This document shows positions 36,135 to 61,100 of a DNA stretch of 64,000 bases, piece by piece; position 1 is the first letter of the stretch, and every line of letters begins with the position of its first letter. The notes below the pieces were generated by a model. It was not told where the DNA came from. It was given only the letters and a program-made list of their open reading frames with translations, and made no database searches. Location of the stretch: the NCBI GenBank assembly GCA_044892505.1, contig CM097882.1, positions 216,566,001 to 216,630,000 of the forward strand. The letters run 5' to 3'. The DNA is from Schmidtea nova. Its lineage: Eukaryota. The position numbers and the translations under genes were made by a program.

Positions 36135-36138
<4 letters not shown>

Positions 36139-37281: not shown

Positions 37282-37917
37282 TCAATTGTATGGTCGTAAC
37301 TCTTGATCGGCCGGGTTCTCGTCTCGGCGAATTCCTGTTTCATGGTATAGTTCGGGGGCTGGATTCCAACTCAGTTTGTTTTGATAAATGAACACCTCCC
37401 AGAGGTGAAGGTCTTTGGGCTCGGGGTGTTGATCCACGGAAACACTGCCTGGGGCGTTCGGGTAAACGAAGACTTCCCCAGTGTCACCACACCGAGGCCT
37501 GTCTAGCAGCAAATACCCGAGTTGACCGAATGCCTGCCCGGTCATCATTCCGGCGCTGAGTACCCAGCGGGGTTGTTGTGTTTCATCTACAAATTGATAG
37601 AACCATCTTTCGTATCCATCTTTGGTGGGGTTCGGGGAGGGCGTCCATTCGACATCGCCTTCCCACCTCAGCTGTAGTTGGAACGCACAGGCGGGAATAC
37701 TTGCCGCTGTGCTCATATGGGTCCTTGTCCATCGACGCAGGTGTCTACGTGCGGAGTTGAAAATTTGTCGTGGGGCCTCCTTCTCTCCTTGGATCTCAGT
37801 AGGTAATTTTGGGGTGATGACGGAGCGGATGCGCCGTTTCCTCCGTAGAATGTACTCCTCTAATTTGACGGTTAGGCGTCCTACCGGCTCCTTCATGAGA
37901 TATTCTGTTTTCATCAT
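37282..37917 (-). CDS. LTR-encoded 211-aa protein of unknown function; copy at 59287-59922
   Basis: ATG-started, GC-richer than its surroundings, element-sense strand; basic N-terminus and Trp/Gly/Pro-rich globular-looking C-half. Confidence 0.55.
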   Translation of the reverse strand: MMKTEYLMKEPVGRLTVKLEEYILRRKRRIRSVITPKLPTEIQGEKEAPRQIFNSARRHLRRWTRTHMSTAASIPACAFQLQLRWEGDVEWTPSPNPTKDGYERWFYQFVDETQQPRWVLSAGMMTGQAFGQLGYLLLDRPRCGDTGEVFVYPNAPGSVSVDQHPEPKDLHLWEVFIYQNKLSWNPAPELYHETGIRRDENPADQELRPYN

Positions 37918-39579
37918 GTTGCTCTGAAATGGAATTTTAGGTTAACTGACAGACTCTATCATCGACCATCGATATTTATGTCGATCAACCTACTTGGTTT
38001 ATCGTTCTATTAGCCGTAGGCCTTAGTAGCTCGCATATAATTTACTAGACCGTTGGTCGCGATGTTCATGTAGGTGGTGACTTTACTTAGGTGAGTTGAT
38101 TCACTCCGCAATTACAGACGGTTTTAGCTACGCAAATTTTGGCTTGTTATTTACAATCAATTTATGTTACATTTAATTTTTCACCGATCCTTTTCATTCA
38201 CTCAACATAGTTCATTTACAGATCATCATCGGCAACTATCAAGGTTCTCGTCACGGGGAAAATTTAGTCATCCCTTAGTCAACTGCTTTATTGAGGAACA
38301 CACTAATTTTATCTACTATCGGGTCTGACTTTTCATGCCCTTAGTGGGTTATATGTATATATCTGGCAGCTCATTCGATTCACTACTGCCCCTTGGTGTT
38401 AATGTCTTTCGACCGCGATGTTACGTTTTGTCTATCTCGATTCTCATCGACTTTTGATGTACTAGCACTCCTTGAAGGCATACCCCTTCATCAAGGTACC
38501 TCATGCATATATCTCCCCTTGCGAAATGAACTTTACCTTGCGTTGATTTATGGTCATTAACTGTCACTCGATATCCCGTCATCGTGAAGTATAGCGTTTA
38601 TATTAGGCCGTCGCTACCTTGATTTAGTTCATGATCATTAGGTATTACTCGATACCCTATGTGCATCTAATCCCCTCCGCTTACCAAATATTTAGTAAAC
38701 TTATGGTCCCGCCGCATCAGTACCTCACAACCGATAAGGTGTGTTGCGCTGAGAGGCCCCGAGAATCCGTCAGGCTGTTAGGCCTCCGGAAAACCTTATG
38801 GATTTTAATATGATTGTAAACAATTATGAGGGTTTAAATAATTAACAATAAAACTCAACCATACTTGTATTTGGCTTCCAATCGGTTTTACAATGTCTTC
38901 CGTAAAAGTGACTGTTGTACTGATTTACCTTCAGTAAAAATGACATTGTCAAATACTGATTTGACTTCAGTATTTATACTCAACCGGTGTTGTTGGTTAG
39001 CCAATCAGCATCGAGTATGTGTGTATGTTTGCTTCATTATTTTTTGTTGCCGGCTTTTTGGTGCCTAACTCAACTCAATGATTTATTTGGTTAATCATGC
39101 GGTAAGTTTATTTTTTGTATGATTTAATTTTTATTTGATTTTGTTTTAACTCTTCGGTGACATCCGCCCACGCGCTGTCATATTCCGATTTTATTTGCTT
39201 CGCATGAGTGAGTTATGAAGATTTTTGTTGTTTTTATTAATACTCCATTTCTTTTAGATGTTGCCGCCTATTTTATTACACTTTGGTGTTGGTAATTTAT
39301 TTTGTTGTTATTCTGTTGTAAATTTATTTTATTGATTGTATATTATTTTTAGATGCTGCTCGATTTGGCTGGCCCAACATCACTCGGGGTCCCCTAAAAT
39401 TGCGTCCCGCAATTACATACATATACTTACATCAACATACATAAAAAGTTCGTGACAGAACTTACATGCAAAACCACATAAGGTGGTAGCTTTTATACAC
39501 ATTTTTACACATACACATTGTCATTGTCATGTTTATATTGTTACACAGTTCAATGTTTCTGGCTCATAGGGGTCGATTT

Positions 39580-40177: not shown

Positions 40178-40790
40178 TTACACATCCGTCTCCTCTGGTT
40201 CATGGAACCCTTCATCTTGAAGTTCCATTGGTGGTGGTGGTATAAACGGTAACCACACCACTCTACTTCTCCACATTGCAACTTCGTTTTGATACGTTCG
40301 AGAGATTTGTATCTCTTCATCTAACAGATACTCCATGTAATCTGATTGTTCGTTCCGAGTTCCGATTTGTCTTTCCATTTCTTCCACTTTTCTCTTCAGG
40401 GCTTCTGTTTCTGTGGGTTCGGTTTCTATTTCTGGGGTTTCTTTTTCTGCTTTCAGGGTTATTATCTGCTGTTTCAGTTCTTCGTTTTCTTTCGTCAAAT
40501 TCGTTATATTTTCCTCATACGCTTGGTTTGATTCCGCATGTCTTTCCTTCACCGCTTTCAGTTCCATTTTCTTTTGAGTTACTACTCCTTGGTAGCCATT
40601 TACATCTCTTTCCAGACTTTCTTTTTCCCTGATCAACTTTTGTCTTTCCGCTTCCTCTTTCTGTCTAATGCCTCGCATTTCTCCATTTATCGTCTGTATT
40701 TGCCATTGCGTTTTCTTTAGTTCCTTTGCTTGTTCTCGAATAAATCGCTGTCGTTTTCGACTCCATTCTTTGTTTGTCTGTTCTTGTCGC
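40178..40790 (-). CDS. Accessory coiled-coil protein (frame open upstream of the annotated ATG at 40678 to ~40790)
   Basis: Long E/K/Q heptad stretch ending in WRSRVVWLPFIPPPP; similar to 17826-18161. Confidence 0.6.
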
Positions 40791-43700
40791 TACACATATC
40801 AGTTCTGGTTGGAATGTTAATTTTCCCGCTGGATTTTTGGTTATTCTTTCTTTCTCTGTTCGGTTTCTGATTCCTTCTTCTGCTTCCGATTGATTCTTCC
40901 CTTTCTCCGATTCCACTTCTGTTCTTCTCGTTGTCTCTTCACTTCTTTTCCCAATCCATTTCTGTATCTTCAGCGCTTCCGTTGCTTTGTATAATTGGCA
41001 TGCAGTTACTTGAGGTGCTTTTGGTTCCCCTCTCTGCTTTATTGCGCATATTATGTATGACTTTTCTTTCTCCAATCCTTTGATTTGGATGACGTCTCGC
41101 TTCAAATCTGACAATATACACTTCAGCGTATCGTTTTTCTTCAGGTTTTCTTTCCAGCATATTCTTTCGTATACTTCGTTTCCTCTGATTATCTCTAGCG
41201 TGACGTATTGTTTCTTGGCTTCTCCTTGTCCGATGATTGTTATCAATATCGCGATACACAACATTTCCGGTCTTAAAAGTAGACTTCCTGTTCGTTTTCC
41301 ATAGTTCGTACTTTCGTCTTTTGTTCCTCTGTTTTCTCGTTCTTCGGCTTCTCCTTTCTTGTCGTTTCTCGTTGGCTTCGGTTCTTCTTGTCTTTCTTTT
41401 TCATTATCCTCCGTTCTTTTGTTGTCATTGTCTTCGTTGTTCTCTTCGTTGTTGCTTTTGTCGTCGAAGTCTCTGTAACCACCCCCTGGTCCTTTGAAAA
41501 TGTCGTCCTCGACATTAATTTCTTCAATCAATCTCTCATACGCTTGAACCGCGAGTGTGCTAGACTCGAATTCACGTATTTCCATATCCTTGGATGGTTC
41601 TATGTCTTTTAATCTACTTTGCTTGATCGCTTCTTTGGCATTTGCCCATTCATTCACATATTTTCTGAACAAGTCTTTCCACCCTCCTATTCGTTCCTGT
41701 TCCTTTGGATTGTTCGTAAGTTTCAAGTCCCTTCTCTTCAAGAACTCCTCAACTATCTCTGGCTTTTTGTGTCTTAGCAACGCGCTTCTGATACACCAAT
41801 TCTGATTCTGTTCCATATGGTCATTGATCTTGAATGCCGGTTCCTTGGTGATCGGATTCACCCATGTTAGTAATGCTCTTGTTTTCTCTATGTCGTGTAT
41901 CATTACTGTCAGACTGAAATTCTTTACGTTATTTGCCAGGTATCCGATATCTTCTTGTTTCTTGATGGACTTCATGAACTTGATCATCTCAAAGTTGTTC
42001 CACTGTATTGCGATGTCTATGATGGAATTATTCTTTCCATTTTTCCCTTCGATTTTTGCTCCTGCTTCGTATAATTCACTTAGCACTTTAAAGTTCGTCT
42101 TCTTTCTTGCTGCGATTATCATGATTGTATCTCCGTTATCATCAACCGTATTCATATCTGCTTCGCACTTGACCATCGCTTTCGTTATTTCTATCACTTC
42201 GTTTTCTTTCTTTCGACGTAATGCCCAGTGTATCGGCAATCTCCCATCCTTCGATAATAGGAATGTTATAGGCATTTGATTTTTGATCGTTTCCATGTCA
42301 CTCTCGTTAGAGTCTCCTTGTGCATATCTGTGCACTTTCTCTGTAATTGCTCCTAGTATTTCTAATGAGTTTTTATTCTCTTTGAACTCTGATAATCTTT
42401 CTTGTGCTTTTGCTACGATTACGTCTAGTCTTTCATGATAATCCGCTTTTGCATTGAACAACACTGCCTTGCTTCTTATTCGTGTTTGCATCTGTTTCAT
42501 CCGTTGGTCTTGATACACTGCTTGTCTGAAGAATTGTCCATACTTCAATGCTTCCACCAGCTCTTTATATCTCTTGCTTATTTCTTTGTGCTGCTTTTGG
42601 ATGTCGTAGAAATGTTCGAAGCTCATATCCGGATTCCATTGCTTATCACACCATTTCTTGATTAATCCGAATAATTCTTTCTTTCTGTCATCCAACTTGT
42701 ATTCTCTTGGGTTCTCGCTAACCCGTAACGTATCTCTCGCTATTAACACTGCAAGTGTTTTTGGATCGTATGTTACCTCTAGTAGATGTTTCAATAACGC
42801 ATTTTCTCCCTTTATTAACACTTCATTACAATCTATGACCCACGAATCTCCTTCTGGTCGTTTCCACTTTAGCAGTATCCTCCAGGTTTTACTGTTCTTT
42901 ACTCCGATTGCTTGTTTCATGATCGGTCCTCTGGTTAGTTCGTCGATTTCCCACGTGGCATTTTCCGTAATATACGTCAGTATTCGGTGATTCGCTCTGT
43001 CAATTGCATGATTCAAGAACGTTCGTCCTTCTTTATCTTTTGCCATCCAATTCGATCTGGTGTTTCCGAATAGCTTGATTATTTCATCGTTTCTTCCATG
43101 AATGGTCATCATCATGAGTGGAGTGATTCCTTCCCAATTCACTTTGTCAATTTCTCCTCCACCTTCGAGTATCATCTCCACAATCTCTTTCACTTTCTCG
43201 TTTCCCCCGTGCTTAATTGCATTGTGCAACGCGGTGTTACCGTCTTTGTCTTGTAGATTCAATGTTTGAGGGATTTCCTCTAGCAGCGTTCTTGTTATTG
43301 GATGTGCTGTTCTATCCTTCGCATACTCCATTACATTCTTTCGAACTTCTGACAGTATACTGAAATCGAACCACCATTTCCATTCTGGTATAATTTCTCT
43401 GGTTTTCTTTGCCAGTTCTTTGATATCTATTGCTTCTCTTCGGTTGTCTTCTAGACTTGTTTGCGGCTTTTGTTGTACTCGTAACATATTAATTCTCGCC
43501 GTCTGTGATCTTGTCATCACCCGTTTCTCTGGTGATAGAGTTGCTGTCTTTGGTATTTTCCTGCATCGACATGCATTCACGTATATTGGTCTTACCAATG
43601 GATTGTTCACCAATCGTACTCTCACATTATTTTCATTTACTGTTGTTATTTCATATGGCCCTTTGCCTGGTCGTTGGAGTTTCTTGACCGTACCGGGTAT

Positions 43701-46700
43701 TATCTCTGGTGTTTCGATTATCACCCAATCTCCAACTTTTAAATCATGTGCTTTCACATTCTTTTTCTGATCATGCAGATCCTTGTAACTCTCTTGATAG
43801 AACTTGATGTTCAGTTCCGCCGTTTTCCAGATTTCTTGCATTCTTTCTTTGAACTTTGTAACGTAATCGTCAACCTTCATGTACTGTGATAATGGTGGTT
43901 GGTATTCTAAATCGATCGGTAAGTTGCAATCTCTTCCGTACATCAGTTGGAATGGACTTAGCTTTGTTGCCGCATGTATTGACATTCTGTATGCCATTAA
44001 ACACAAGTTGATATATTCGTCCCAGTCGGTTTGATGTTTGCTGACGTAATTCGACAACATACGTATCAATGTTCCATTGAATCTTTCTGTTTGTCCGTTC
44101 GTTTGTAGATGGTATGGGGATGTTCGTAATTTCGCAATTCTGAAGTAATTCGTAACTTCGTCCAATATTTCACTCATGAAATTCGTTCCTTGATCCGTTA
44201 GGATTTTCTTTGGTGTTCCGTATCTGCAGCATATCTCTTCCACCAATATTCTTGCGACTGTTTTCGCCTTTTGATCCGGTATTGCGAACGCTTCTGGGAA
44301 CTTTGTTAGATAGTCCGTGACTACTAATATATACTGATTCCCCTTTAAGCTTTCCGGCAATGGTCCAACTACGTCCATTGCTATCGTTGCCATCGGTTCT
44401 GCAGGTATTGGCATAGGTTTCAGTGGTGTTTTCCACTTTGTTCCGACGTTCTTTCTTGTCGCACAGGTTAAGCAGTTCTTTATCCATTCCTTCACATCAT
44501 CTTCCATGGTTGGCCAAAAATACTTTTGTCTCAATCTCCCGATTGTCTTTTTTGCTGACATATGTCCGCCTAATTTTCCGTCGTGATATTGAGTCATGAT
44601 TTCCTTTCGTCTATTCGCAGGTAAGCACATCAATCTCCGTTCTCCATCTTGTATCAATAACCATCCTTTTTCCATCACGTATCGGTGCTGATATTTTTGC
44701 ATATGTTCGCGCAACGTTTGGTTCTTGCCGAATATTTCTATTTCCCTTTCTTTCAAATACTTGCTGATCAATCCCAACTCCTCGTCTTCGAGTTGGTCTT
44801 TCCTTAATTCGCTGAAATCCAAATCCTCCGCTATTAATGCACATATTTTTAGAGCATTCAGGTTCACCAATTCTGGAAATGTAAACCTTGACATGCAATC
44901 TGCGTTTGCATTCGCTTTTCCTGCTTTAAACTTTATGAATGGCGAGTATTCTTGCAACTGCATCGCCCAACGCATCAATCTACTTGATGATTCTTTATGT
45001 TGACCTAACCATACCAATGGTTGATGATCCGTCGTGATATATATTTCATGACCCCACAATAGGTATTTGAAATGCTTGATTGCCAATATTATCGCATAGG
45101 CTTCTCTTTCCGTGACTGAGTAATTCCTTTCATGTTTCCTGAATGTTCGACTGTAGTACCCAATTACTCTTTCCTTGCCTTCTTCGTCAAATTGGCCTAG
45201 TACTGCTCCTGCTGCATATCCACTTGCGTATGTTGCCAACAGAAATGGCTTCTTAAAGTCTGGATGGACCAATATTGGTGCTGTAATCAGTTTGTCTCGT
45301 AATGTTTCAAATGCTGCTTGTTGTTCTTTTCCCCATATAAACGACACATCTTGTCTTACCAATTCTTGCATTGGCTTTGATATTCCTGCATAGTCCTTGA
45401 TAAACTTTCGATAATATCCACACAATCCCAAAAATTCTTGTATTTGAGTCACTGTTTTCGGTGGTGGACATTCTTTGACTTTTTCGATATTCCTTGGATC
45501 GGGTTCTTTTCCTTTTGCTGATACGATGTGACCTAAGAATGTCACTTTCTCTTTTGCCCAATCGCACTTTGACGGCTTCAGTTTCAGTTTCCACTGTCTC
45601 AATTTCACGAACACATTTCTGATGTCTTGTAAGTGATCTTCAAATGTTGCGGAGTAGATCAATAGATCGTCGATATACACCATGCATTGTTTTATGCCAT
45701 GTGTCACGAAATTCATGCATCTCTGGAATGATGCTGGCGCGTTTGTTAACCCAAACGGCATTTTCTTGAATTGGTACAGATCTCGTCCGATTGTAAATGC
45801 TGTCTTTTCTTTATCTTCGTCTTTCATTTTGATCTGCCAATATCCGCTTTTTAAATCCAGTGACGTGAAATAAGCTGCTCCTTGTAACGTCAATAACATT
45901 TCATTTATGTCTGGCAGTGGGTACGTATCTCTTTTCGTAACTGCGTTCAATCGTCTGTAATCGATACAGAATCTCTGAGTTCCATCCTTCTTTTTCACCA
46001 TCACCACTGGGAATTGCCAGGGTGAGCAACTAGGTTCGATGACCTCTGCATCTAACATCTTTTGTACCTCTTCTTCTGCCACTGCTTTTTGAGCTTCTGC
46101 CAGTTTATATGGTCTTAATGCGATTGGCGTTTCGTCCGTCAACGGTATCGTATGTAATGTTACGTCACATGTTCCTAAATCCAGATCTGATGCTGCGAAT
46201 ATATCTTTATATTCCATCAACAGTTTCTGTAACTGTTCTTTTTGTCGTTCGTCTAACAACACACTGTCAATTTTCCATGGTAATTCGTCTTTGCTTTTCT
46301 CGTTCTTGTCTGGTATTTCGATTTCGGACATGGGTGTCAATTTACCCAATCTTTCATTCTCGTATATTATCTTGTCCTCTTCGTCGAAGTTTACCAGATT
46401 AATCGGTATTTCTCCTTCTTGGTTTATCGTAACCAATTCTCTTGCCATTGGTAATTCTTTCTTTGCTTCGAACTTCTTACTGGGTTCGAATATCATATCT
46501 CCCTTTATTGTCGAATCGATCTTGACGTAGCACATCATTTCGTGTCTCGCTGGTACTACTATTTGTTCCGCACTTGCCACTTTAACTTTCATTCTGCAGA
46601 TTTTTCCTGTTCTATCTTTTAGTTTCATTGCTCCTAGATCAATTACGATTTCCTTGAACAGGTCTGGCATCAGGTCAGTTCCAATAATACATGGTACACT

Positions 46701-49700
46701 CAGCGATGGTATTACAGCGATGTACGTGTTGATTTCTGCACCTCGATGTTTAATTTTTACAAACCATCTTCCGGCTACTTCTACTGTCTCTTGACTGCAC
46801 GCGATTACATGTACATTCGTCTTCTCTATTTCTCCTTGGTTTTTCTCTGGTATATAGTTGATGTCGATCGCCGAAATATTCGCGCCTGTATCGATCATTG
46901 CTTCGATTTCTTTTCCGTTTATTTCTATGGTTGTTGTTAAAATCGGTCCCATATTTGTGGACATAACTGCTATCGTGTGCGTGTCTTCCAACGGGTCTAC
47001 ACTTTTGCATCGTTTTACTTTGCATCCTTCTGGAATTATCGGGTATATACTTGTCATCGGCATCATCTGCATTATATTCGGCTTCGCTTTGTATATCGGT
47101 TCGTTATACATTGACTGGGGTGGAGCACTGTATCTCCAATTCTCAACTGCACTCTTTTCGTTATACTGTGGAATCTGGTTTATATTCTCTTGTCCTCCTC
47201 GATCGTCATCGTCGTCATCATCATTGCTTGAGTCATCTTGCGTTCGATATCCTCTCACTCTTTCCCATAATCCTTTCCTTTCTTTCTTTAATTGTCTTCT
47301 TGCTTGTTCGTCTTGCATTATCTTTTTGAATTTCCTTCCAACATCTTCATTTGTTCCTTTCATTTTTGCGAGTATCTTCAACAATCTTTTTATTCGATGT
47401 ATGTCTTTTGAATGTCCGTGCAACACCATCGTTTTCGCAAGGAATGGTAAAAACCCTACTACCATCTTCCAATTCACTTTCTTTTCTCTTTTGTAGATAT
47501 CGAAACACGCTAACATTTGCGTTATTATCACTCTGACGATTTGTATTATCAATATAACACCCAGTATTCCAGCCATCATTTGTCCAAATATCAGGAATCT
47601 TCCCCACATTGCCTTCATCATATTTTCTGTGGCTTTCTTGAAATGTGCCGGTGACAACAGCAGTTCGTAATTTGGTCCTTCTCGATAATTCGTTCCTCCC
47701 GTTATCGTTACGATATTTGACAGTAATGCTTCTCTTCTTGCCGGGAATAGTATATTCTGCCTTGCTGCTTCTAAATCTTTTGGACTATAGATTCCGTTGT
47801 TTGAGACATCTACGTCGCTAAACTGTCTGTCCTTTGACAACTGCATTAGTTCAAATTCTCTTGGTGCTAATACTTCGGTTCTTCCTGGGAACATAACCCA
47901 TTTGCCATCTGGCTTCTGATAAAGCGGTCCGTACGCGTTACTACAGTTGAACGGATTTGGTTCAAACCCTGGTGGATTGATGATTCTCGTCACCGGTTGG
48001 ACGTATCGTACTTTTCCTTTATAATCGATTTCTAGTTCGTTTGTGCACTGTCCAGGTTTCAACTGCGTTGTTGCTGCTAGCGATGCGTGTGTCTTTTCGC
48101 AAATGTATACGTACATTGCCTCTCCAACCACTCTCCCGAAATGTCCTTCTCTCAGTGGTAATAACGGCATCGCGCTATCTGGGTTCGTAATCGCTACGGC
48201 CAACTTTGTCTTTAATATTTCCCGATTCAGTATACAATCGTTATTTATCAGATCGTAGTACACTTTTTGCAATGAGGCTTGTCCTCTATGGAATAAGAAA
48301 TCCATTTTATTATTCACGTACAAGTGTAGCTTGATATCCATTGTGTCGATCTTGGGTTTCGCATTCGGCACTTCTTGTTTCGACACGTATATTCCTGGAT
48401 AGTTTGTTTCGTATACCGTTGTACTGCACTTAAGGGTTGCTTTCCCTTTTATGAATCTCATTCCCACATCCTGATTTGTGGTTATCAACACTGTTGGTGT
48501 GGTTCTCATTTCTATCCGTTTCTCTCTATGATCCGGTTTCAATTGTCTTTTATTCTCTAAAGCTTCTTTGAGATGTTTTGCTCTAGCTTTGTCGTCATCG
48601 TCCTCTTCTTGGAACGTTTTTCCTTGGATTTCGTCGAACTTTGCTCCTTGTAGCAGTTGTAATTGACATTCGTTCACTTTCGGTTTGTATACCAATGTTG
48701 ACATTCCCGTTTGACACATACTCCTGTCGATTTTACACATGGATAACGTTTTCATTTCTCCGGTTGTCGGTTCGAAGAATGCTTCGTAGCTTTTCAGTTC
48801 GACTATGTACGTATCCATCACCACTAAGTTGGTTGCAGGTGCTCCGAATATTGGGTAGGTTTCTCCTTGACAATATCCTTCTCCTCCCGTAATCCGTCCT
48901 GCTACATAATACGTCTGCTGTAACATCATTCCTGGCTTTCCTTTTATCTTGATTTTATCTCTCGTTGTTACTTCTCCATGTTTAAATAATGCTTCGCAGT
49001 CTTCCCCTTGCAATACGATTGGTTCTCTTTCTGTTCCTGGCATGACAATTGCTGAATAATGTCCTCTCCCACAATAGAATGCGAATCTCGTCTTTTGTAC
49101 CTTGCATTCATTCACCATTGTCTTTATTAGTTCTGCCTCTTGATACACGTGATACCATTGTTCTTTTTTAATCTCTTTCAATTCTACTGGAGTTGCGTCT
49201 TTGCATTGCTCCGTACCTCTCAATGAGTACTTTTCTCCCAATTTCATTTGATCACAATCAAATACTTCGAACGTTGTTACACCTTCTGTGCTTAACAACC
49301 ATACTAGCATCATCATGATTATCGAGTTTAGATTCAACGTCGATCTTCCGTTTCCTTGCATCGTTTGTCTATTCTCCATTTCTCTCAATACTCCTTCGAG
49401 TTTCTTTCTCATCACGTTAGATCCTTCTTTTGTCTGGTTCTCTTTTATGAACTTTTCCCATCCTCCTTTTCTGAGGATATATGGTTCAATTTCCTTCTCG
49501 ATAACCATCGCCGTATTCTTAATATGTCTTCCCATCGGACTTGACTTCGGACTTCCTCGGCTTAGCGTTAGCAAATTGTATATCGTATACGAGATTGCTA
49601 CTAGATATTTGCTGTCCGTTTCTGCTCCGTTCAGTAGCCTTTTTATCAACATCGTGGTTCCTTGCCAATCTAGATGATTCGATTTTGTTTTTGCCTTTAT

Positions 49701-50204
49701 CAATTCCGGCATAATCGGTGCTATTGCATTATGTAGCATTTTTGCCTTTGTACTGGGTTCGTTTATCCGCCACAAATTCTTTAATTCTGGGTCAATTATC
49801 GCTAACACATCCATTATCGTTTTGGTGAGCCATTCTTCTCCTTGACAAACTTGATTCTCCTCTTTTCCTCTGATTTCTGCGATTTTGTCTAGTTTCTTCA
49901 AGCAAATCTCCCATTGCTCTTGTCTCCTTTCTTCTCTTGTCTTTGGAATTGTTGTTGCTGGATCTATCTTTGGTCTCCCTCTTGGTCGTTTTTCCATTCC
50001 AGTTCCGGTTTCTACAAATCTCGCTGCTCTTCCGGTTTCTTCTGTAACATCTCTTCCTTCGTTTGCTCGTTGTTCTAACCATCTTTCCATTTCTTGAGTA
50101 AACTGTGGTTGTTCTTGCTCGTCTTCTGATTCGTTTACCATTTCTATGACTACCTCCTGTTCCACTCCTTGATCGTCGATTTCTGCTGGTGACGTTATTG
50201 GCAT
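40665..50204 (-). CDS. pol: 3179-aa polyprotein: AT-hook, Bcl-2-like, Env, PR, RT, RNase H, IN, ankyrin repeats, signal + FN3-like module
   Basis: PR IDTGA; RT LDLKSGYWQ, PFGLTNAPASFQ, YIDD; RH TYASG...EAYAI...TDH; IN H-X6-H...CLTC, DVVG/DQG/ERFN, GPY; see the sub-features. Confidence 0.97.
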   Translation of the reverse strand: MPITSPAEIDDQGVEQEVVIEMVNESEDEQEQPQFTQEMERWLEQRANEGRDVTEETGRAARFVETGTGMEKRPRGRPKIDPATTIPKTREERRQEQWEICLKKLDKIAEIRGKEENQVCQGEEWLTKTIMDVLAIIDPELKNLWRINEPSTKAKMLHNAIAPIMPELIKAKTKSNHLDWQGTTMLIKRLLNGAETDSKYLVAISYTIYNLLTLSRGSPKSSPMGRHIKNTAMVIEKEIEPYILRKGGWEKFIKENQTKEGSNVMRKKLEGVLREMENRQTMQGNGRSTLNLNSIIMMMLVWLLSTEGVTTFEVFDCDQMKLGEKYSLRGTEQCKDATPVELKEIKKEQWYHVYQEAELIKTMVNECKVQKTRFAFYCGRGHYSAIVMPGTEREPIVLQGEDCEALFKHGEVTTRDKIKIKGKPGMMLQQTYYVAGRITGGEGYCQGETYPIFGAPATNLVVMDTYIVELKSYEAFFEPTTGEMKTLSMCKIDRSMCQTGMSTLVYKPKVNECQLQLLQGAKFDEIQGKTFQEEDDDDKARAKHLKEALENKRQLKPDHREKRIEMRTTPTVLITTNQDVGMRFIKGKATLKCSTTVYETNYPGIYVSKQEVPNAKPKIDTMDIKLHLYVNNKMDFLFHRGQASLQKVYYDLINNDCILNREILKTKLAVAITNPDSAMPLLPLREGHFGRVVGEAMYVYICEKTHASLAATTQLKPGQCTNELEIDYKGKVRYVQPVTRIINPPGFEPNPFNCSNAYGPLYQKPDGKWVMFPGRTEVLAPREFELMQLSKDRQFSDVDVSNNGIYSPKDLEAARQNILFPARREALLSNIVTITGGTNYREGPNYELLLSPAHFKKATENMMKAMWGRFLIFGQMMAGILGVILIIQIVRVIITQMLACFDIYKREKKVNWKMVVGFLPFLAKTMVLHGHSKDIHRIKRLLKILAKMKGTNEDVGRKFKKIMQDEQARRQLKKERKGLWERVRGYRTQDDSSNDDDDDDDRGGQENINQIPQYNEKSAVENWRYSAPPQSMYNEPIYKAKPNIMQMMPMTSIYPIIPEGCKVKRCKSVDPLEDTHTIAVMSTNMGPILTTTIEINGKEIEAMIDTGANISAIDINYIPEKNQGEIEKTNVHVIACSQETVEVAGRWFVKIKHRGAEINTYIAVIPSLSVPCIIGTDLMPDLFKEIVIDLGAMKLKDRTGKICRMKVKVASAEQIVVPARHEMMCYVKIDSTIKGDMIFEPSKKFEAKKELPMARELVTINQEGEIPINLVNFDEEDKIIYENERLGKLTPMSEIEIPDKNEKSKDELPWKIDSVLLDERQKEQLQKLLMEYKDIFAASDLDLGTCDVTLHTIPLTDETPIALRPYKLAEAQKAVAEEEVQKMLDAEVIEPSCSPWQFPVVMVKKKDGTQRFCIDYRRLNAVTKRDTYPLPDINEMLLTLQGAAYFTSLDLKSGYWQIKMKDEDKEKTAFTIGRDLYQFKKMPFGLTNAPASFQRCMNFVTHGIKQCMVYIDDLLIYSATFEDHLQDIRNVFVKLRQWKLKLKPSKCDWAKEKVTFLGHIVSAKGKEPDPRNIEKVKECPPPKTVTQIQEFLGLCGYYRKFIKDYAGISKPMQELVRQDVSFIWGKEQQAAFETLRDKLITAPILVHPDFKKPFLLATYASGYAAGAVLGQFDEEGKERVIGYYSRTFRKHERNYSVTEREAYAIILAIKHFKYLLWGHEIYITTDHQPLVWLGQHKESSSRLMRWAMQLQEYSPFIKFKAGKANANADCMSRFTFPELVNLNALKICALIAEDLDFSELRKDQLEDEELGLISKYLKEREIEIFGKNQTLREHMQKYQHRYVMEKGWLLIQDGERRLMCLPANRRKEIMTQYHDGKLGGHMSAKKTIGRLRQKYFWPTMEDDVKEWIKNCLTCATRKNVGTKWKTPLKPMPIPAEPMATIAMDVVGPLPESLKGNQYILVVTDYLTKFPEAFAIPDQKAKTVARILVEEICCRYGTPKKILTDQGTNFMSEILDEVTNYFRIAKLRTSPYHLQTNGQTERFNGTLIRMLSNYVSKHQTDWDEYINLCLMAYRMSIHAATKLSPFQLMYGRDCNLPIDLEYQPPLSQYMKVDDYVTKFKERMQEIWKTAELNIKFYQESYKDLHDQKKNVKAHDLKVGDWVIIETPEIIPGTVKKLQRPGKGPYEITTVNENNVRVRLVNNPLVRPIYVNACRCRKIPKTATLSPEKRVMTRSQTARINMLRVQQKPQTSLEDNRREAIDIKELAKKTREIIPEWKWWFDFSILSEVRKNVMEYAKDRTAHPITRTLLEEIPQTLNLQDKDGNTALHNAIKHGGNEKVKEIVEMILEGGGEIDKVNWEGITPLMMMTIHGRNDEIIKLFGNTRSNWMAKDKEGRTFLNHAIDRANHRILTYITENATWEIDELTRGPIMKQAIGVKNSKTWRILLKWKRPEGDSWVIDCNEVLIKGENALLKHLLEVTYDPKTLAVLIARDTLRVSENPREYKLDDRKKELFGLIKKWCDKQWNPDMSFEHFYDIQKQHKEISKRYKELVEALKYGQFFRQAVYQDQRMKQMQTRIRSKAVLFNAKADYHERLDVIVAKAQERLSEFKENKNSLEILGAITEKVHRYAQGDSNESDMETIKNQMPITFLLSKDGRLPIHWALRRKKENEVIEITKAMVKCEADMNTVDDNGDTIMIIAARKKTNFKVLSELYEAGAKIEGKNGKNNSIIDIAIQWNNFEMIKFMKSIKKQEDIGYLANNVKNFSLTVMIHDIEKTRALLTWVNPITKEPAFKINDHMEQNQNWCIRSALLRHKKPEIVEEFLKRRDLKLTNNPKEQERIGGWKDLFRKYVNEWANAKEAIKQSRLKDIEPSKDMEIREFESSTLAVQAYERLIEEINVEDDIFKGPGGGYRDFDDKSNNEENNEDNDNKRTEDNEKERQEEPKPTRNDKKGEAEERENRGTKDESTNYGKRTGSLLLRPEMLCIAILITIIGQGEAKKQYVTLEIIRGNEVYERICWKENLKKNDTLKCILSDLKRDVIQIKGLEKEKSYIICAIKQRGEPKAPQVTACQLYKATEALKIQKWIGKRSEETTRRTEVESEKGKNQSEAEEGIRNRTEKERITKNPAGKLTFQPELICVATRTDKQRMESKTTAIYSRTSKGTKENAMANTDDKWRNARH
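40960..41285 (-). other. Internal signal peptide plus one FN3-like Cys module at the polyprotein C-terminus
   Basis: EMLCIAILITIIGQGEA|KKQ then ICW...C...IQIKGLEKEKSYIICAI...C, matching the modules in 15750-17200. Confidence 0.6.
41960..43270 (-). other. Two ankyrin-repeat clusters (~42870-43270 and ~41960-42260) fused downstream of integrase
   Basis: QDKDGNTALHNAI, NWEGITPLMM, KDKEGRTFLNHAI, KDGRLPIHWAL, VDDNGDTIMIIAA, KNGKNNSIIDIA. Confidence 0.88.
43590..44640 (-). other. Integrase domain (HHCC, DD35E, GPY)
   Basis: YHDGKLGGH...CLTC; IAMDVVGP; ILTDQGTNF; GQTERFN; GPYEI. Confidence 0.95.
44880..46150 (-). other. Reverse transcriptase and RNase H (first catalytic Asp reads Tyr)
   Basis: RT motifs intact; RNase H FLLATYASGYAAGAVL with codon TAC at 45228-45230 where the family has TDAS. 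Confidence 0.95.
46600..46960 (-). other. Aspartic protease
   Basis: INGKEIEAMIDTGANISAI ... CIIGTDLM. Confidence 0.93.
47420..49340 (-). other. env: Envelope glycoprotein resembling chuvirus (Jingchuvirales) G
   Basis: Signal LNSIIMMMLVWLLSTEG; FEVFDC...YSL...C; C.LNREILKTKLAVA..NP; GEAMYVYIC; CTNELEI...VQPVTRI; GIYS..DL......ILFP; WGRFLIFGQMMAGILG + TM; REKR at 48516-48527. Confidence 0.8.
49437..49922 (-). other. Putative Bcl-2-like domain
   Basis: MLIKRLLNGAETDSKYLVAISYTIYNL (divergent BH1 position) and EIEPYILRKGGWEKF (BH2 WIxxxGGWxxF-like), with helical spacing typical of the fold. Confidence 0.6.
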
Positions 50205-50209
50205 CTCTA

Positions 50210-53011
50210 TTATTCTGTCAAAATATTCGCCGTTGGTTTTTGAGTCAACTTTGTTAATTCTTCTATCGCTTCATCACTGTCTGTTAGTATCTCATCGACG
50301 TCATACGCTTCTGGCGGTGTTCTCTCTCTTGTTTTTATTGGTGTTGTCCTTGCTTGTCCTGAACTTGTTCCTGGGATATTTGTTGACTTCGTCGGACTTG
50401 GTGTACTCATGCTTCCTTTCGCTTTCTTTTCCTCTTTAAACTTCAGTGGTTGACCCACTATTTGTGCCACTGTTAGCGTATTCATTAGATCCAATTGCAC
50501 TGGTGTCAGCCAGATTTCCAAATTGTTATCCAACGATCGTCCTTGATGTTGCAGGTGGAATGGTAGTTCGTACATCAGTTTCTCTTTAACACTTTTCACT
50601 TTTTCCGTTAGCATCACCCAAAACTCTTCTTTTCTCTGATTCGGATACATTATCCTCAAATGTATTTTCTGTGGCGTTTCCTCTGCAAACTCTTTGTTTC
50701 TCCACTTTTTTATTACATCGTCTAGTTGCTCCGGACACCACTCATTAACTCTCTTGTACTCTGCTATCGCTTTAGCTACTTTTCTCAAGTTCGTTATGTC
50801 TTCTCCATTTGAGATTATGAATTGTGCTAAGCCTTTTATTGTTTGTCTTTTTCCCCGAGTATTTCCTCTCAACAGCTCGATCAATTCACTCGTTTTCTGT
50901 TTCTCCAATTCTGCCCATATTACTGCAGTTTCTGGTCCGTCTAAGTCCGTTGGTAGTAACCTCCTTGTTACCATACATATCCGTTTCGTATTCCGTTCAT
51001 ATCTGTCTTCTTCTTCCGGATCTTCTTCATACACGCCTCTTTTCACTTTCCAACATTTCTCTTTGTTATCCCATTGCTTCTCTACTGGCGTCAATCGTCG
51101 TCTATTACGATCCAATTCTCCCAATATTGTCTCCCATTCTGGCTTCATCTGCCAGTTCCGATAGATTTCTACTATCTGCCTCAACTTGCGCATAACGTCC
51201 TCTTGTCGTTTCTTTCTTCTTTCCTCATCTCTTGGTGTTGCTCTTGGCACATCATCCATTCTGATGACATGTATTGTCTGATAATTATCCCATATGCCAA
51301 TTTTGTACGCTCGTCTCTCATCACGTTCGTTCAGTAGATGTTCTTTGTATTTTATCGCTATGTCATCCTCAAATTCGTCTTCCCGTTCTCGTTGCAATAT
51401 CGTCTCATTGATGACCTCTACTATTTCTCCCACTTTACTATCTGGTATTACTTCAATTTGTCTTGTCTCTTCGTTCGGTAATCTCACAGTAATCATCAGA
51501 TCTGATACCTCTCCTCTTTTAAACATTTCTTTTCCCATCTTTGCAATTAGCTTGTCTGTTTTGAAATTTGAATGTCTCGTTTGACTTGTATCTCGTATGT
51601 TTTCGATACACTGTTTCAAATTCTCATACTCGCTTTTTGTCAATTCCTTTCGATGTTTCTTGATTTGTTGGATGATCTGTTCTATCATCGTATTCAAATT
51701 CTCTGCCAAGATTCTTTCCTTTGCCTCCATCAACTGAGGTTTTATTCTCATCTCATAACACGTATTCGCTTCTCTGACGATTCCTTGTAGGTTCTCTTCC
51801 TTCTTGGTGTTGCATATAGATAGCGTTGTTATTTCTCCTGGCCATATGCCTGTGTCTATCATATGCGTTCCTTTTCTCACCAATCCGTTTTCCGAATATA
51901 TGAATTTGTCTTTGTACGAGCTTCCCAATCTGTCCTCAACCCATCTGTAAATTCCATCCGTCATTGGGTTCCTTATCCAGATTCTTGGTGAACACTCGTT
52001 TATCCATATTTGTATTACGTATTCGTTCAGTGGCTCTTTCAATAACTTCTCTATGAATTCTTGTATTACCCTCACTTCTCTTTCTTGTAACCACTCTTTA
52101 TACTTCGTCTGCCATACTGCTCGTATAAACTTTCTATATCGTTTCCCGTCGATAAACTCCTCGTTATGGATTACTTCCAACGCGTTATCCATCAGCTTCT
52201 GAATTTCCTCTTCCTTTACTGACATCGTTTCTATCGTCTCGACTACTTCCATCTTTTTATCCTCGTTTTCCGGTTCCTTTAGCATGTCTCCTGCCAGACT
52301 GCTAACTTCGCTGTCGTCTTCTTCATCTGACAACTCTTGTCTTGGGTGTCTCAGCATCCCAATATGCGCGGTTGGTCTCGCTTCGTTTTTGCTAACTTCT
52401 TGTATTAGTTCATTCTCGTTTCCCGTTATTTCAGCTTTTCCCATTCTCTTTTCCAACTCGTCTATTTCTTCCAGCCGTCTTCGTCTTATTTTTCCTTTAA
52501 ATATTCGACTGATCCGAGTTTGATGTTTTACTGGTGGGGGAATTTTCTCCGGTTCCACCTCTCTAATGATCATCACGTTTATTTTCGTCTCCGTTACTCC
52601 CATATCTTCCCATATATCAGTCATCTTCAACTTTACTTCTGGCAAATCCTCTGTTTGTAGGAATGCTTCTCTGGGCAGTTTCGTTACTCCCGGCATCATC
52701 TCATTTACTTTATTGAACAATCTTCCCACTTCTTCTTTTACATCGTGTTTGAATCGCCACACGTGATCATTCGGCATGATCACCAACATTCCTCTTTGTT
52801 TGATTCTCACTTCCTCTTCTTGATTCGTTTCTTTTTCTGTTTCTTTTTCTGTTTCTGTTTCTTTTTCTACTTCTTCCACTTTTTGATTCTGCTCTGTAGT
52901 TTCTACTTCCTGACTCACTTCTTCTTGTTTCTGCTCTTCGTTTCTTTTCTCTTTAACTTCTAACTCGTCTGGCTCATCCTGCTGCTTCTCTTCCATCATT
53001 GCTCGCATCAT
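50210..53011 (-). CDS. 933-aa post-Gag region with four ubiquitin-like domains
   Basis: Ubl-like segments at ~52562-52795, 51812-52021, 51260-51499 and 50462-50668 (e.g. MITVRLPNEETRQIEV; HLQHQGRSLDNN; THMIDTGIWPGEITTL). In frame with gag across TAG 53153; one base out of frame with the downstream ORF. Confidence 0.7.
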   Translation of the reverse strand: MMRAMMEEKQQDEPDELEVKEKRNEEQKQEEVSQEVETTEQNQKVEEVEKETETEKETEKETNQEEEVRIKQRGMLVIMPNDHVWRFKHDVKEEVGRLFNKVNEMMPGVTKLPREAFLQTEDLPEVKLKMTDIWEDMGVTETKINVMIIREVEPEKIPPPVKHQTRISRIFKGKIRRRRLEEIDELEKRMGKAEITGNENELIQEVSKNEARPTAHIGMLRHPRQELSDEEDDSEVSSLAGDMLKEPENEDKKMEVVETIETMSVKEEEIQKLMDNALEVIHNEEFIDGKRYRKFIRAVWQTKYKEWLQEREVRVIQEFIEKLLKEPLNEYVIQIWINECSPRIWIRNPMTDGIYRWVEDRLGSSYKDKFIYSENGLVRKGTHMIDTGIWPGEITTLSICNTKKEENLQGIVREANTCYEMRIKPQLMEAKERILAENLNTMIEQIIQQIKKHRKELTKSEYENLKQCIENIRDTSQTRHSNFKTDKLIAKMGKEMFKRGEVSDLMITVRLPNEETRQIEVIPDSKVGEIVEVINETILQREREDEFEDDIAIKYKEHLLNERDERRAYKIGIWDNYQTIHVIRMDDVPRATPRDEERRKKRQEDVMRKLRQIVEIYRNWQMKPEWETILGELDRNRRRLTPVEKQWDNKEKCWKVKRGVYEEDPEEEDRYERNTKRICMVTRRLLPTDLDGPETAVIWAELEKQKTSELIELLRGNTRGKRQTIKGLAQFIISNGEDITNLRKVAKAIAEYKRVNEWCPEQLDDVIKKWRNKEFAEETPQKIHLRIMYPNQRKEEFWVMLTEKVKSVKEKLMYELPFHLQHQGRSLDNNLEIWLTPVQLDLMNTLTVAQIVGQPLKFKEEKKAKGSMSTPSPTKSTNIPGTSSGQARTTPIKTRERTPPEAYDVDEILTDSDEAIEELTKLTQKPTANILTE

Positions 53012-53152
53012 GTTGATCCTTGGATTTCCTTTTTTTAACTGTTGTAATCGTTGTTGCCTGACTTGTTCTTCTTCTCGTCGTACTCTAGCCCATTCTTGAT
53101 TATGTTTCTGTTGACTCTCTCTATTCTCTCTTTCGGCCTCAGCTTCTATTAA

Positions 53153-54610
53153 CTAGATCATGTTTATCTTTGGTTGAGCAGCTTGCTGGCTTCCTTTTGC
53201 CATGCTTTCGATTATCTCGTGTAATCTGGATACCTCCTGTCTCAACTTAGCTTCTTTCATACTGGCTTCATTTGCACTGCTGTTTGGGTTATTCCGTTGT
53301 TGACCCTGATTCCCATAGCTGGGTCGATTCCCGTAATTCGGTCTATTTCCACTGTTTGACCAACTTCTCTGTTGATTACAGTCTCTTGACATGTGTCCGG
53401 TTTTTCCACATGTGTAACACGTTTTCCCATAACATCGATTTTCTGAGTGACCCTTTTGTGCACACAGTTTACAGGCTACATTCTGAAAACACTCTTGTTG
53501 CCAATGTCCGTTTTTCCCACACGTCTGACATTGCTTATTCTGCCTGTCATTGTAACTATTTCCTCCACTCGTGTTCACCGTGATATATCCGTTATTCTTC
53601 CTCGCTGGCGGTTCTTTGAATAGTCTCTGCGAATGGGGAATACTTTGATTCATGTTTCTTTTTCCTTGTTCTTCATCTTCTGTCGTTTTTCCCATCACCG
53701 CCGTAATTCTCATGTCGTTCATTGCCATATGCAATTCGAATAGGTTGGCTGCTTCCAACGCTTCATCTATTGTTTTACACCCTTTGCATCCTACTTGTGC
53801 TCTGATGTCAGGTCTCCTGAGACCTCGTACGAATAACGCTGTCATCAATTCCTCATCTACTGGACTTCCTCTGTTAAATGCCAGTTTCGCCAACTTTCTT
53901 AATTCACTTGCGTACACCGCATTTGACTCATTTCTCCTCTGTTTTCTTGCTGAGAACTCATCGAATGCTTCATTCAGCACTTTGTTTATCCCAAACGTCT
54001 GTTGGAAGAACTCCTTGATCGCTTCCCACGTTCTGGGTGGACTACTTCCAGATCTCTTTTCGATATACAGATCCAATGCGCTATCTTTCAAGTATAGCGG
54101 GATTCGATTTGCCAACGTTTCTGCACTCCATCCGCATATATCCACGAATATGCCAAATTCCTTTAGAAACGTGTCCAATCTACTGGCGTCTCCATTGAAT
54201 GGTTCGCCCTTGAATTTTTCTCTCAGATCCTCTCTGTGTTCACTCATCCCGATTCCACTATCTTGGAATACTGTACTAGTTTTCTTTGCTTCTAGTTCAC
54301 CTCTTGTTTCTGAATTCGACTCTTCTTCTTCACTACTCTCTGTTTCGTTATCTCTTGATTCGCTTCTTGTTCTGTTTTCCCTGACTAGTTCACTGTCTAT
54401 CGTCTCTACTTCGTTTTGAACTTCTAGATCTTCTGGGGTTTCTTCTTGGTTCTCTTTATTACTCGAATTATCGCTGATCTCTACTTGTTTGTTCTTTTGT
54501 TGCTTAGGCTTGTTACCTGTTCTTGTTCTTTTTGCTGCTTTTCTTTCGGCTTCCGTTAAGATTGGTATTATACCTGATCTTGTTTCTCGTCCCTCAATTT
54601 TGTCTATTCC
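53153..54610 (-). CDS. gag: Gag (capsid + three CCHC zinc knuckles); frame open to 54610 and continues past a TGA at 54611 to ~54745
   Basis: FNGD...FL..F...W...LYLKDSALDLY; MHR-like KQRRNESNAVYASELRKLA; CQTCGKNGHWQQEC, CKLCAQKGHSENRC, CYTCGKTGHMSRDC. Confidence 0.93.
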   Translation of the reverse strand, partial: GIDKIEGRETRSGIIPILTEAERKAAKRTRTGNKPKQQKNKQVEISDNSSNKENQEETPEDLEVQNEVETIDSELVRENRTRSESRDNETESSEEEESNSETRGELEAKKTSTVFQDSGIGMSEHREDLREKFKGEPFNGDASRLDTFLKEFGIFVDICGWSAETLANRIPLYLKDSALDLYIEKRSGSSPPRTWEAIKEFFQQTFGINKVLNEAFDEFSARKQRRNESNAVYASELRKLAKLAFNRGSPVDEELMTALFVRGLRRPDIRAQVGCKGCKTIDEALEAANLFELHMAMNDMRITAVMGKTTEDEEQGKRNMNQSIPHSQRLFKEPPARKNNGYITVNTSGGNSYNDRQNKQCQTCGKNGHWQQECFQNVACKLCAQKGHSENRCYGKTCYTCGKTGHMSRDCNQQRSWSNSGNRPNYGNRPSYGNQGQQRNNPNSSANEASMKEAKLRQEVSRLHEIIESMAKGSQQAAQPKINMI

Positions 54611-58136: not shown

Positions 58137-58142
58137 ATTTTA

Positions 58143-61100
58143 TGCTGGTGTGTTGGTTAGATTGACAACTGAGATCCTTATGATTTTATACGTTAGGGTG
58201 ATCTCGCCAACATAAAGATATTCCCCCCGCTGACACCCATGATGTATCCCTAACTACTCATCATGTTGGTGCTGTGTCAACGTTGTGAAATGACAAGGCA
58301 GGTGAGCAACCTTACGGCTACTATTCCCTTGTTTATTCACGGGTCCACCACTACCGATAAAAGGTGTCTGTGGCTTTCTTTCGGTCCCACTTATGCTCTT
58401 TCCTTTGCTCTAGGGTAATTTAATCTTAGCGCATCTGCTGTGCTTCATGAATCCGGGCTTTAGTTTTATTCAATTCTCAGACATTCCACAAACAAACAAG
58501 ACAAGTCAACTCATTCATTTTATACATTTATTTATAGTTTAACAATACAGAGGGTCTAATTACATTTAGTAGTTCTTGCTCGGAGAGACCACTGAGCAAG
58601 TCTACCTCTATTCCTACGCGATCTGCATATGCGCGTCTCTCCCTACGTTTTTTCGCTCCCAAGCGATTCCTTCGTTTGGTCCTCTGCGACCCTCGTGGTA
58701 TGGTCGTGGTCATCTCGGTTGCCGTGGTTACGGTTATCTCTTAGTCGGTTTGCGTACTCGTCGTTGCTGATGTCGGAGTTAACCATTTGTTGAAGGTACT
58801 CGTTCTAATCACTGGACGCAATTGCTCAACGATGAAATCCTGGGTCGACACCTTTAAATAATTGGCCAACTCTAACTTCAGGGCTGCGACCTCCCTCGCT
58901 TGTTCATCGATCGTTCGCTCCGCTCTGTATCGGGCCTGTAAGATGGCTTTAACACTCTCAGGATTAAACCACGTTGCCTTAATCCGCTGGTGCTCCTCGT
59001 TCAGTTGTCTCAAGCGACTCTCGAGGACACGAGATCGTGCTCTATGTTCGCGTGCCTCTTGCTTGTACTTTCGAGTGGGATTTTCGTCCATATCTGAGTA
59101 ATATATCATTAACCAGGGTATGTATGCATTGTTGGGTTTCTCAGTCCCTATTTTATTGTTAAACAACTGCACCCTCATCCTTACTCATTCCACATACATC
59201 CAAAACCAAAACAAAACCCTTTTAAATGGATACATATATTTTTAATTCACAACAGATGGTCGCACATTGGAGTGTCGTCCTCGTGATCAATTGTATGGTC
59301 GTAACTCTTGATCGGCCGGGTTCTCGTCTCGGCGAATTCCTGTTTCATGGTATAGTTCGGGGGCTGGATTCCAACTCAGTTTGTTTTGATAAATGAACAC
59401 CTCCCAGAGGCGAAGGTCTTCGGGCTCGGGGTGTTGATCCACGGAAACACTGCCTGGGGCGTTCGGGTAAACGAAGACTTCCCCAGTGTCACCACACCGA
59501 GGCCTGTCTAGCAGCAAATACCCGAGTTGACCGAATGCCTGCCCGGTCATCATTCCGGCGCTGAGTACCCAGCGGGGTTGTTGTGTTTCATCTACAAATT
59601 GATAGAACCATCTTTCGTATCCATCTTTGGTGGGGTTCGGGGAGGGCGTCCATTCGACATCGCCTTCCCACCTCAGCTGTAGTTGGAACGCACAGGCGGG
59701 AATACTTGCCGCTGTGCTCATATGGGTCCTTGTCCATCGACGCAGGTGTCTACGTGCGGAGTTGAAAATTTGTCGTGGGGCCTCCTTCTCTCCTTGGATC
59801 TCAGTAGGTAATTTTGGGGTGATGACGGAGCGGATGCGCCGTTTCCTCCGTAGAATGTACTCCTCTAATTTGACGGTTAGGGGTCCTACCGGCTCCTTCA
59901 TGAGATATTCTGTTTTCATCATGTTGCTCTGAAATGGAATTTTAGGTTAACTGACAGACTCTATCATCGACCATCGATATTTATGTCGATCAACCTACTT
60001 GGTTTATCGTTCTATTAGCCGTAGGCCTTAGTAGCTCGCATATAATTTACTAGACCGTTGGTCGCGATGTTCATGTAGGTGGTGACTTTACTTAGGTGAG
60101 TTGATTCACTCCGCAATTACAGACGGTTTTAGCTACGCAAATTTTGGCTTGTTATTTACAATCAATTTATGTTACATTTAATTTTTCACCGATCCTTTTC
60201 ATTCACTCAACATAGTTCATTTACAGATCATCATCGGCAACTATCAAGGTTCTCGTCACGGGGAAAATTTAGTCATCCCTTAGTCAACTGCTTTATTGAG
60301 GAACACACTAATTTTATCTACTATCGGGTCTGACTTTTCATGCCCTTAGTGGGTTATATGTATATATCTGGCAGCTCATTCGATTCACTACTGCCCCTTG
60401 GTGTTAATGTCTTTCGACCGCGATGTTACGTTTTGTCTATCTCGATTCTCATCGACTTTTGATGTACTAGCACTCCTTGAAGGCATACCCCTTCATCAAG
60501 GTACCTCATGCATATATCTCCCCTTGCGAAATGAACTTTACCTTGCGTTGATTTATGGTCATTAACTGTCACTCGATATCCCGTCATCGTGAAGTATAGC
60601 GTTTATATTAGGCCGTCGCTACCTTGATTTAGTTCATGATCATTAGGTATTACTCGATACCCTATGTGCATCTAATCCCCTCCGCTTACCAAATATTTAG
60701 TAAACTTATGGTCCCGCCGCATCAGTACCTCATAACCGATAAGGTGTGTTGCGCTGAGAGGCCCCGAGAATCCGTCAGGCTGTTAGGCCTCCGGAAAACC
60801 TTATGGATTTTAATATGATTGTAAACAATTATGAGGGTTTAAATAATTAACAATAAAACTCAACCATACTTGTATTTGGCTTCCAATCGGTTTTACAATG
60901 TCTTCCGTAAAAGTGACTGTTGTACTGATTTACCTTCAGTAAAAATGACATTGTCAAATACTGATTTGACTTCAGTATTTATACTCAACCGGTGTTGTTG
61001 GTTAGCCAATCAGCATCGAGTATGTGTGTATGTTTGCTTCATTATTTTTTGTTGCCGGCTTTTTGGTGCCTAACTCAACTCAATGATTTATTTGGTTAAT

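Follow-up and report, generated by a model that had tools for sequence, protein, structure and literature searches.

This locus raises the question of whether a single hydrophobic segment in the polyprotein of a giant retroelement could do two jobs, as the signal peptide of Env and, once cleaved, as the C-terminal membrane anchor of a Bcl-2-like domain encoded ahead of it. Part of the picture is already known from planarian Burro elements, namely that a BCL2-like motif is followed by Env. According to the available text of PMC6431247, these elements encode a polyprotein of ~5,000 aa in which a BCL2-like motif occurs along with ankyrin and BIR domains, and in which a mononegavirus-like env sits in frame after BCL2 and before PR; its authors (Arkhipova and Yushenova 2019) suggest that the elements meddle with host apoptosis. 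The same portion of that article makes no mention of a signal peptide, an anchor, a topology or a fold test for Burro, and no paper proposing a shared Env signal and Bcl-2 anchor was found in searches whose coverage mostly excluded subscription journals. The present analysis adds a test of the fold, a conserved cleavage site together with the topology implied by it, and the hypothesis of dual use. In the reading favored here, to which we assign a probability of roughly 50%, the segment would start the translocation of Env and be cut behind its hydrophobic core, the Bcl-2 half would be tethered to the ER membrane at least transiently, and the domain would modulate host cell death, likely by dampening it.

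The host of the domain is a 25.2-kb gypsy LTR element on the minus strand of the window (the whole stretch of 64,000 nucleotides analyzed). Its parts show the Burro-type order, with Gag (CCHC knuckles), an unannotated region, the Bcl-2-like domain, Env, PR, RT, RNase H, integrase and ankyrins, all but the unannotated region and the Bcl-2-like domain as assigned with Pfam:

58139..61385, minus strand: 5' LTR of 3,247 bp, 99.88% identical to 36134-39380, assigned as 5' from the orientation of the open reading frames
53153..54610, minus strand: Gag (Retrotrans_gag plus CCHC knuckles), closed by a stop in the window copy
50210..53152, minus strand: accessory part of the polyprotein, from Gag to the Bcl-2 domain; in the window copy its frame differs from that of the part behind it
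49968..49991, minus strand: AT-hook-like or NLS-like KRPRGRPK, read from the sequence
49863..49937, minus strand: extra helix ahead of the Bcl-2 core, outside the structurally aligned part, with an LxxIA pattern that we take to be BH3-like
49425..49856, minus strand: predicted Bcl-2-fold core (ORF aa 139-282) with a short alpha3 region, from profile and structure model
49587..49643, minus strand: degenerate BH1, with TDSK at the NWGR position, from the alignment
49446..49496, minus strand: BH2, IEPYILRKGGWEKF, its GGW invariant in 13 of 13 rows
49338..49424, minus strand: variable linker, helical by prediction, 41% identical to the sister family, with the weakest constraint
49272..49337, minus strand: predicted internal Env signal peptide and putative C-terminal anchor of the Bcl-2 half, with the predicted cut before 49271
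47604..49271, minus strand: Env ectodomain, a Monjiviricetes-type fusion glycoprotein (PF24664, E 2.9e-71)
47493..47603, minus strand: Env transmembrane or stop-transfer segment, from hydrophobicity
44109..46940, minus strand: PR, RT, RNase H and integrase, from Pfam, the position of the RNase H catalytic motif being altered in the window copy
41970..43271, minus strand: ankyrin repeats, from Pfam
41211..41273, minus strand: second signal-peptide-like segment, read from the sequence
36134..39380, minus strand: 3' LTR, the pair of 58139..61385

The identity of the two LTRs points to a recent insertion. The copy in the window is damaged, since it has a stop after Gag, frame changes near 50210-50270 and 40665-40789, and the altered RNase H motif; its main open frame covers 40665-50270 on the minus strand (3,201 codons). 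More than 20 other genomic copies keep a single frame of about 5,075-5,114 aa (150 of the 1,312 candidates were scored), and the Bcl-2-like domain is an internal part of a Gag-Env-Pol polyprotein of ~5,090 aa. Because the window copy is broken upstream of the domain, any mechanism proposed below is a statement about the family and not about this copy. The accessory part (50210..53152), which gave no Pfam match above the cut-off, runs in a continuous frame in a sister family. When the genome was searched with the domain and with PF00452 and PF24664, six further families with the same layout emerged, whose domains are 15-66% identical to that of the window. At least seven Burro-type families coexist in this genome (L047, L078, L077, L087 and L088 among the loci), with frames of about 3,000-5,700 aa.

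As a giant LTR element with a Gag-BCL2-Env-PR-RT-RH-IN-Ank polyprotein, the element belongs to the Burro-type gypsy elements. With Burro/GYPSM1 (Grohme 2018, via the available text of PMC6431247) it shares a size of >20 kb, an N-terminal Gag with CCHC, the BCL2-like motif, an env before PR, ankyrins and a high copy number; it differs in measuring 25 kb as against >30 kb, and its likeness to Burro1-4 is one of description. BIR and MATH/TRAF domains, which are listed for Burro1 and vary among members, gave no Pfam match in the scanned polyprotein frames of the window family. Other features of the element are a 19-bp tandem repeat (55790-56074) in the leader between the 5' LTR and Gag, a 219-codon open frame within each LTR (37282-37941 and 59287-59946, minus strand), and a TA microsatellite on both flanks (36023-36134 and 61385-61432). 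Behind the ankyrins there are two more signal-peptide-like segments of similar sequence and a C-terminal transmembrane segment (41211-41273 in the window; aa 2296-2310, 2449-2465 and 2854-2877 in the related locus L034), an arrangement that hints at additional products, secreted or membrane-bound and without a Pfam match.

The motifs from which the preliminary description started are all found in the single minus-strand open frame 40665..50270, including the BH2-like, degenerate BH1 and AT-hook-like motifs, the hydrophobic segment and Env. The BH2-like PYILRKGGWEKF lies at 49449-49484, and the hydrophobic LNSIIMMMLVWLLS, at 49290-49331, starts 39 residues past it, with Env (PF24664) directly behind. 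A Bcl-2-like domain is indeed present where that description had put it (49290..49990), although its core is narrower, covering 49425-49856. The description mentioned neither the polyprotein setting of the domain nor the break upstream of it in the window copy. Similarly, the AT-hook reported upstream corresponds to KRPRGRPK at 49968-49991, but this sequence gives no Pfam AT-hook match; a GRP core appears at this place in 5 of the 9 lineages checked. The helix upstream of the core, which could regulate the putative Bcl-2 protein, has the BH3-like pattern in families A (that of the window), A', B, C and D and lacks it in E and F. The idea that this helix fills the groove found no support, as in the model of family C it continues alpha1, with low confidence.

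The window domain alone matches nothing in Pfam Bcl-2, PDB sequences or the ESM Atlas, and word-index protein searches with it were blank, which given their length limits is weak evidence; its resemblance to Bcl-2 proteins could therefore be seen only through its relatives. An HMM of five sister families that stops short of the hydrophobic segment gives the window domain 20.5 bits and that of its sister family A' 32.2 bits, whereas the best shuffle reached 10.0 bits (1000 shuffles, 984 of them reported) and the reversed sequence -0.8. With a profile of 13 rows from seven families, the best PDB match was Bcl-xL (E 7.5e-8, over BH1-BH2), and 99 PDB sequences were matched at E<=0.01, the best 60 of which all belong to the Bcl-2 family. 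PF00452 is matched at E<=1 by 10 of the 13 rows (best 8e-8), the window row not being one of them, and an hhalign comparison with six host Bcl-2-type exons gave 87.8% and E 3.3e-6. By way of this family profile, and in that sense transitively, the window domain is a predicted homolog of PF00452 and of the solved Bcl-2 proteins. The invariant GGW of BH2 belongs to a W-x5-GGW pattern whose first Trp is a Tyr in the window. Between families A and A', the core exhibits a pN of 0.16 and a pS of 0.85 (saturated), which indicates purifying selection.

In a tree, the element rows stand apart from the host rows with a support of 86/93, which does not establish a single capture of the domain from the host. 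The genome also holds a set of host Bcl-2-family exons (L035-L043, L046, L054, L056, L060 and L063), several of which are short, single-exon-like and provided with hydrophobic tails, and among which we presume, by resemblance, that there are BOK-like and Bak-like members. About 220 kb upstream of two Bak-like exons were searched, and no credible BH3 exon was found there.

The Bcl-2 helical bundle expected in the preliminary description was put to a structural test set beforehand, in which an AlphaFold model was compared with known folds by Foldseek and VIA-align, and Bcl-2 folds were recovered by both. The window model, guided by the sister-family alignment, was the one of five that reached a pLDDT of 65, the other four having 39-51. 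All 49 rows listed by Foldseek for this model are Bcl-2 family proteins, with a best E of 1.4e-3 and none at <=0.001; the top viral match is ASFV A179L (E 6.8e-3). In VIA-align, the model superimposes on Bfl-1 with Z 13.6 and an rmsd of 2.9 Å over 139 aligned residues, a score to be read with the caveat that helical bundles can reach a comparable Z by chance. This caveat is offset by a clean list of matches, ranks 1-35 all being Bcl-2 folds and the first other fold having Z 5.5, and by its agreement with the sequence profile. The model of a second family (C, pLDDT 67) gave Z 13.2, an rmsd of 3.2 and 130 aligned residues, with 7 Foldseek matches at E<=0.001. In the window model, alpha2 and alpha4 are just about 10 residues apart, at low confidence, and alpha3 is short or merged in both models. 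Viral Bcl-2 proteins are matched in fold at 5-17% identity. On these models, the domain almost certainly has a Bcl-2 fold, and the fold test raises what was a motif match to a structure-level claim.

A fold by itself shows no function, and the best fold matches, which are pro-survival proteins (Z 11-13.6), are followed within about 2 Z units by Bak, Bok and Bax. As had been described from the sequence, BH1 is degenerate, and the NWGR of canonical pro-survival proteins is replaced in the window by TDSK. Among 18 element-type rows, four of which are fragments assigned by similarity, this position holds the Trp in none, the Gly in one and a basic residue (K/R) in 16. The available texts on viral proteins report that ORFV125 retains the Gly and Arg for BH3 binding (PMC7719400), that vaccinia N1 is anti-apoptotic without the Gly and Arg of NWGR (PMC2885619), and that DPV022 binds Bak, Bax and Bim without recognizable BH motifs (PMC11209288). 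Viral Bcl-2 proteins lacking NWGR can still be anti-apoptotic, and for the putative domain of the element, such a role has about even odds.

These features bear on a second explanation, in which the tether is real but serves mainly to keep the Gag precursor at the ER, beside Env, for particle assembly, while the Bcl-2 fold, without binding BH3, would act as a scaffold or as an innate-immune antagonist. The latter is the role of the poxviral proteins A52, B14 and A46, which are also among the fold matches (Z 5.7-7.8). The loss of the BH1 Trp and Gly, the short alpha3 and the fact that Gag, domain and segment form one chain in copies with a continuous frame are all consistent with this explanation. 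Nevertheless, the cellular and viral pro-survival proteins match well above A52, B14 and A46, the GGW of BH2 and the basic residue of BH1 are conserved, and the BIR domains also carried by Burro elements (available text of PMC6431247) point to a cell-death theme. We regard an assembly or scaffolding role as unlikely.

With respect to the segment itself, the claim that it serves as the signal peptide of Env was borne out as a prediction. The residue sets allowed at -3 and -1 are those of the von Heijne rule, and the site was counted three residues before a conserved [YF]DC. The rule is also named in the available text of PMC8310223. Small residues occupy -3/-1 at this one aligned site in 14 of the 15 lineages, compared with a background of 0.13 and with 0-9 of 15 at other offsets; these lineages (seven families plus eight database proteins) are related, so a binomial P is overstated. 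The residues at -3/-1 vary between lineages, and those of the window (V at -3, T at -1) are not optimal. The eight database proteins come from a profile search of 1.84 billion representatives that returned 14, of which these eight cover the junction, from the end of the domain through the segment to an Env-like start; of the other six, four are element-type fragments that lack this junction, and two resemble host genes. The n-region has a net positive charge in 11 of the 15 lineages, and the segment shows the n-h-c layout of a cleavable internal signal, with GGW and the cleavage site separated by 50-79 residues in all 15. Position 4 of the 653 positions of PF24664 aligns to the hydrophobic core, so that the segment matches the beginning of a viral glycoprotein family; since the searches retrieved no stand-alone viral relative of Env, the likeness to a viral N-terminal signal comes from the Pfam model position alone.

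The segment is thus likely to be an internal signal peptide. From the conserved site, a topology can be deduced in which the chain from Gag to the Bcl-2 domain would be cytosolic, Env luminal and Pol cytosolic again, the hydrophobic stretch of Env measuring 32 residues. It could instead be supposed that a spliced or subgenomic RNA is the main source of Env, with the segment as an ordinary N-terminal signal and the Bcl-2 domain as a mere neighbor in the frame, as env is a separate ORF in other gypsy-like elements (available text of PMC6431247). Two observations make this supposition very improbable. First, the frame is unbroken from Gag through Env to Pol in families A (in other copies), A' and E, and from Gag to Env in the database protein P0002. 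Second, a Met in the linker is absent in 6 of the 15 lineages and lies at no shared position in the rest, so the segment is not an N-terminal signal read from a conserved nearby start.

The border between signal and Env also appears in the comparison of families A and A'. Their mature Env proteins (window 47400-49271 versus L031) are 97-100% identical, and synonymous divergence is 0.27-0.32 for mature Env, as against 0.74-0.88 for Bcl-2 core, segment, cytosolic tail and Pol alike. On crossing the predicted cut, nucleotide identity rises from 20/30 to 26/30. Env was apparently exchanged from the predicted signal-peptidase site onward, leaving the segment on the Bcl-2 side, although the boundary could mirror where homology allowed recombination. 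This exchange is a single event, absent in the pairs B/C, B/D and E/F and partial in C/D. Recurrent swapping of Env at the cleavage site as a general rule was rejected, given its absence from those three other pairs.

Whether the segment would then last as an anchor is a different matter. By topology, it would stay after cleavage on the upstream chain from Gag to the Bcl-2 domain, and the anchored product would include Gag unless the protease of the element cuts upstream. The C-terminus of this product would exist only after the presumed cleavage, and its insertion would be co-translational. In the window, the hydrophobic core has 10 residues within an uncharged run of 19, followed by a stub of 7 aa; the median of the 15 lineages is 13 (8-20), with 16-17 in families B, C and D, 18 in E and F, and 14-18 in four host-type tails. 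The host-type tails end in basic residues, whereas the window stub has none, which fits the ER rather than mitochondria. The ER tail anchor of the preliminary description is therefore plausible in that topology leaves the segment on the Bcl-2 side, and is weakened by the 10-residue core and by viral precedents in which comparable anchors are trimmed. Overall, a lasting anchor has about even chances.

The precedents come from the Flaviviridae, in whose polyproteins combined anchor/signal sequences are a standard solution (available text of PMC8310223). There, as proposed here, an internal segment (capsid-prM, core-E1, E1/E2) initiates translocation of the glycoprotein behind it and remains attached to the C-terminal end of the protein ahead; the difference is that in the window the upstream protein is a captured fold of cell-death regulators fused to Gag, and that Pol lies behind Env. 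The anchor of capsid or core is later trimmed off, the flavivirus capsid losing its comparable anchor to the viral protease and the core of pesti- and hepaciviruses being cut by SPP (PMC8310223, same text). The segment of the element might accordingly be a signal peptide only, removed afterward by SPP or the element protease, leaving a Bcl-2 domain that is soluble or relocated to mitochondria or, with its AT-hook-like motif, to the nucleus. The short core of the window, the basic GRP motif present upstream in part of the lineages and the alignment of the segment to the start of the glycoprotein model, by which it probably came with Env and not with Bcl-2, would agree with such a removal, as would the position of the segment 34-61 residues past GGW, compared with 16-32 in the four host-type tails. 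Against it, the domain adjoins the segment in all 15 lineages showing both, five of the seven families (B-F) have cores of anchor length (16-18), and the segment did not move with Env in the one apparent exchange. We consider this possibility rather doubtful.

The favored reading, in which the tether would be at least transient and the domain would modulate cell death, can be laid out in steps. Translation in the cytosol would first yield Gag, then the accessory region and then the Bcl-2 domain, the order observed in the frame. The segment would then enter the translocon, and signal peptidase would, with high probability, cut three residues before [YF]DC. The transmembrane segment of Env would halt transfer and return Pol to the cytosol. 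After that, in what we see as an evenly balanced step, the cleaved segment would remain in the membrane as the C-terminal anchor, leaving a short stub in the lumen, and the element protease may free the domain from Gag. Finally, and with similarly balanced odds, the putative domain would bind host regulators of death or stress at the ER. The strongest form of the proposal, in which one segment is both the Env signal peptide and the lasting ER anchor of a captured, active pro-survival Bcl-2 protein, appears unlikely as a whole. If it were true, each polyprotein that yields an Env would also deliver a single death inhibitor, perhaps along with Gag, to that membrane, and the synthesis of a fusogen would be hard-wired 1:1 to the suppression of apoptosis in a retroelement that is actively spreading in a regenerating animal. 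All viral Bcl-2 proteins found among the matches with solved structures belong to DNA viruses, so a retroelement with an active one would be a case of a transposon that directly interferes with the apoptosis of its host, as proposed in the available text of PMC6431247.

The domain shares its predicted fold, the divergent BH1 and a hydrophobic segment behind BH2 with the Bcl-2 proteins of dsDNA viruses (ASFV A179L, EBV BHRF1, KSBcl-2, and poxviral N1, F1L and M11L). However, these are encoded by free-standing ORFs, while the window domain is internal to a retroelement polyprotein, is proposed to obtain its C-terminus through signal peptidase, and has lost the BH1 Gly. With cellular Bcl-2 proteins (Bfl-1/A1 and Bcl-xL, and the host-type L035-L043 and L060) it has in common a predicted eight-helix bundle, the GGW of BH2 and a downstream hydrophobic segment, and it differs from them in that the window family lacks NWGR, has a longer distance from BH2 to the anchor, and carries no basic C-terminal residues past the segment.

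Outside the element, the window contains a 363-codon open frame (18187-19278, plus strand) encoding TRAF-type zinc fingers, with a weak match to RING, adjoined by unannotated frames at 15139-17001 and 17064-17699. Positions 1-15023 are occupied by a large array of long repeats with 93-98% identity.
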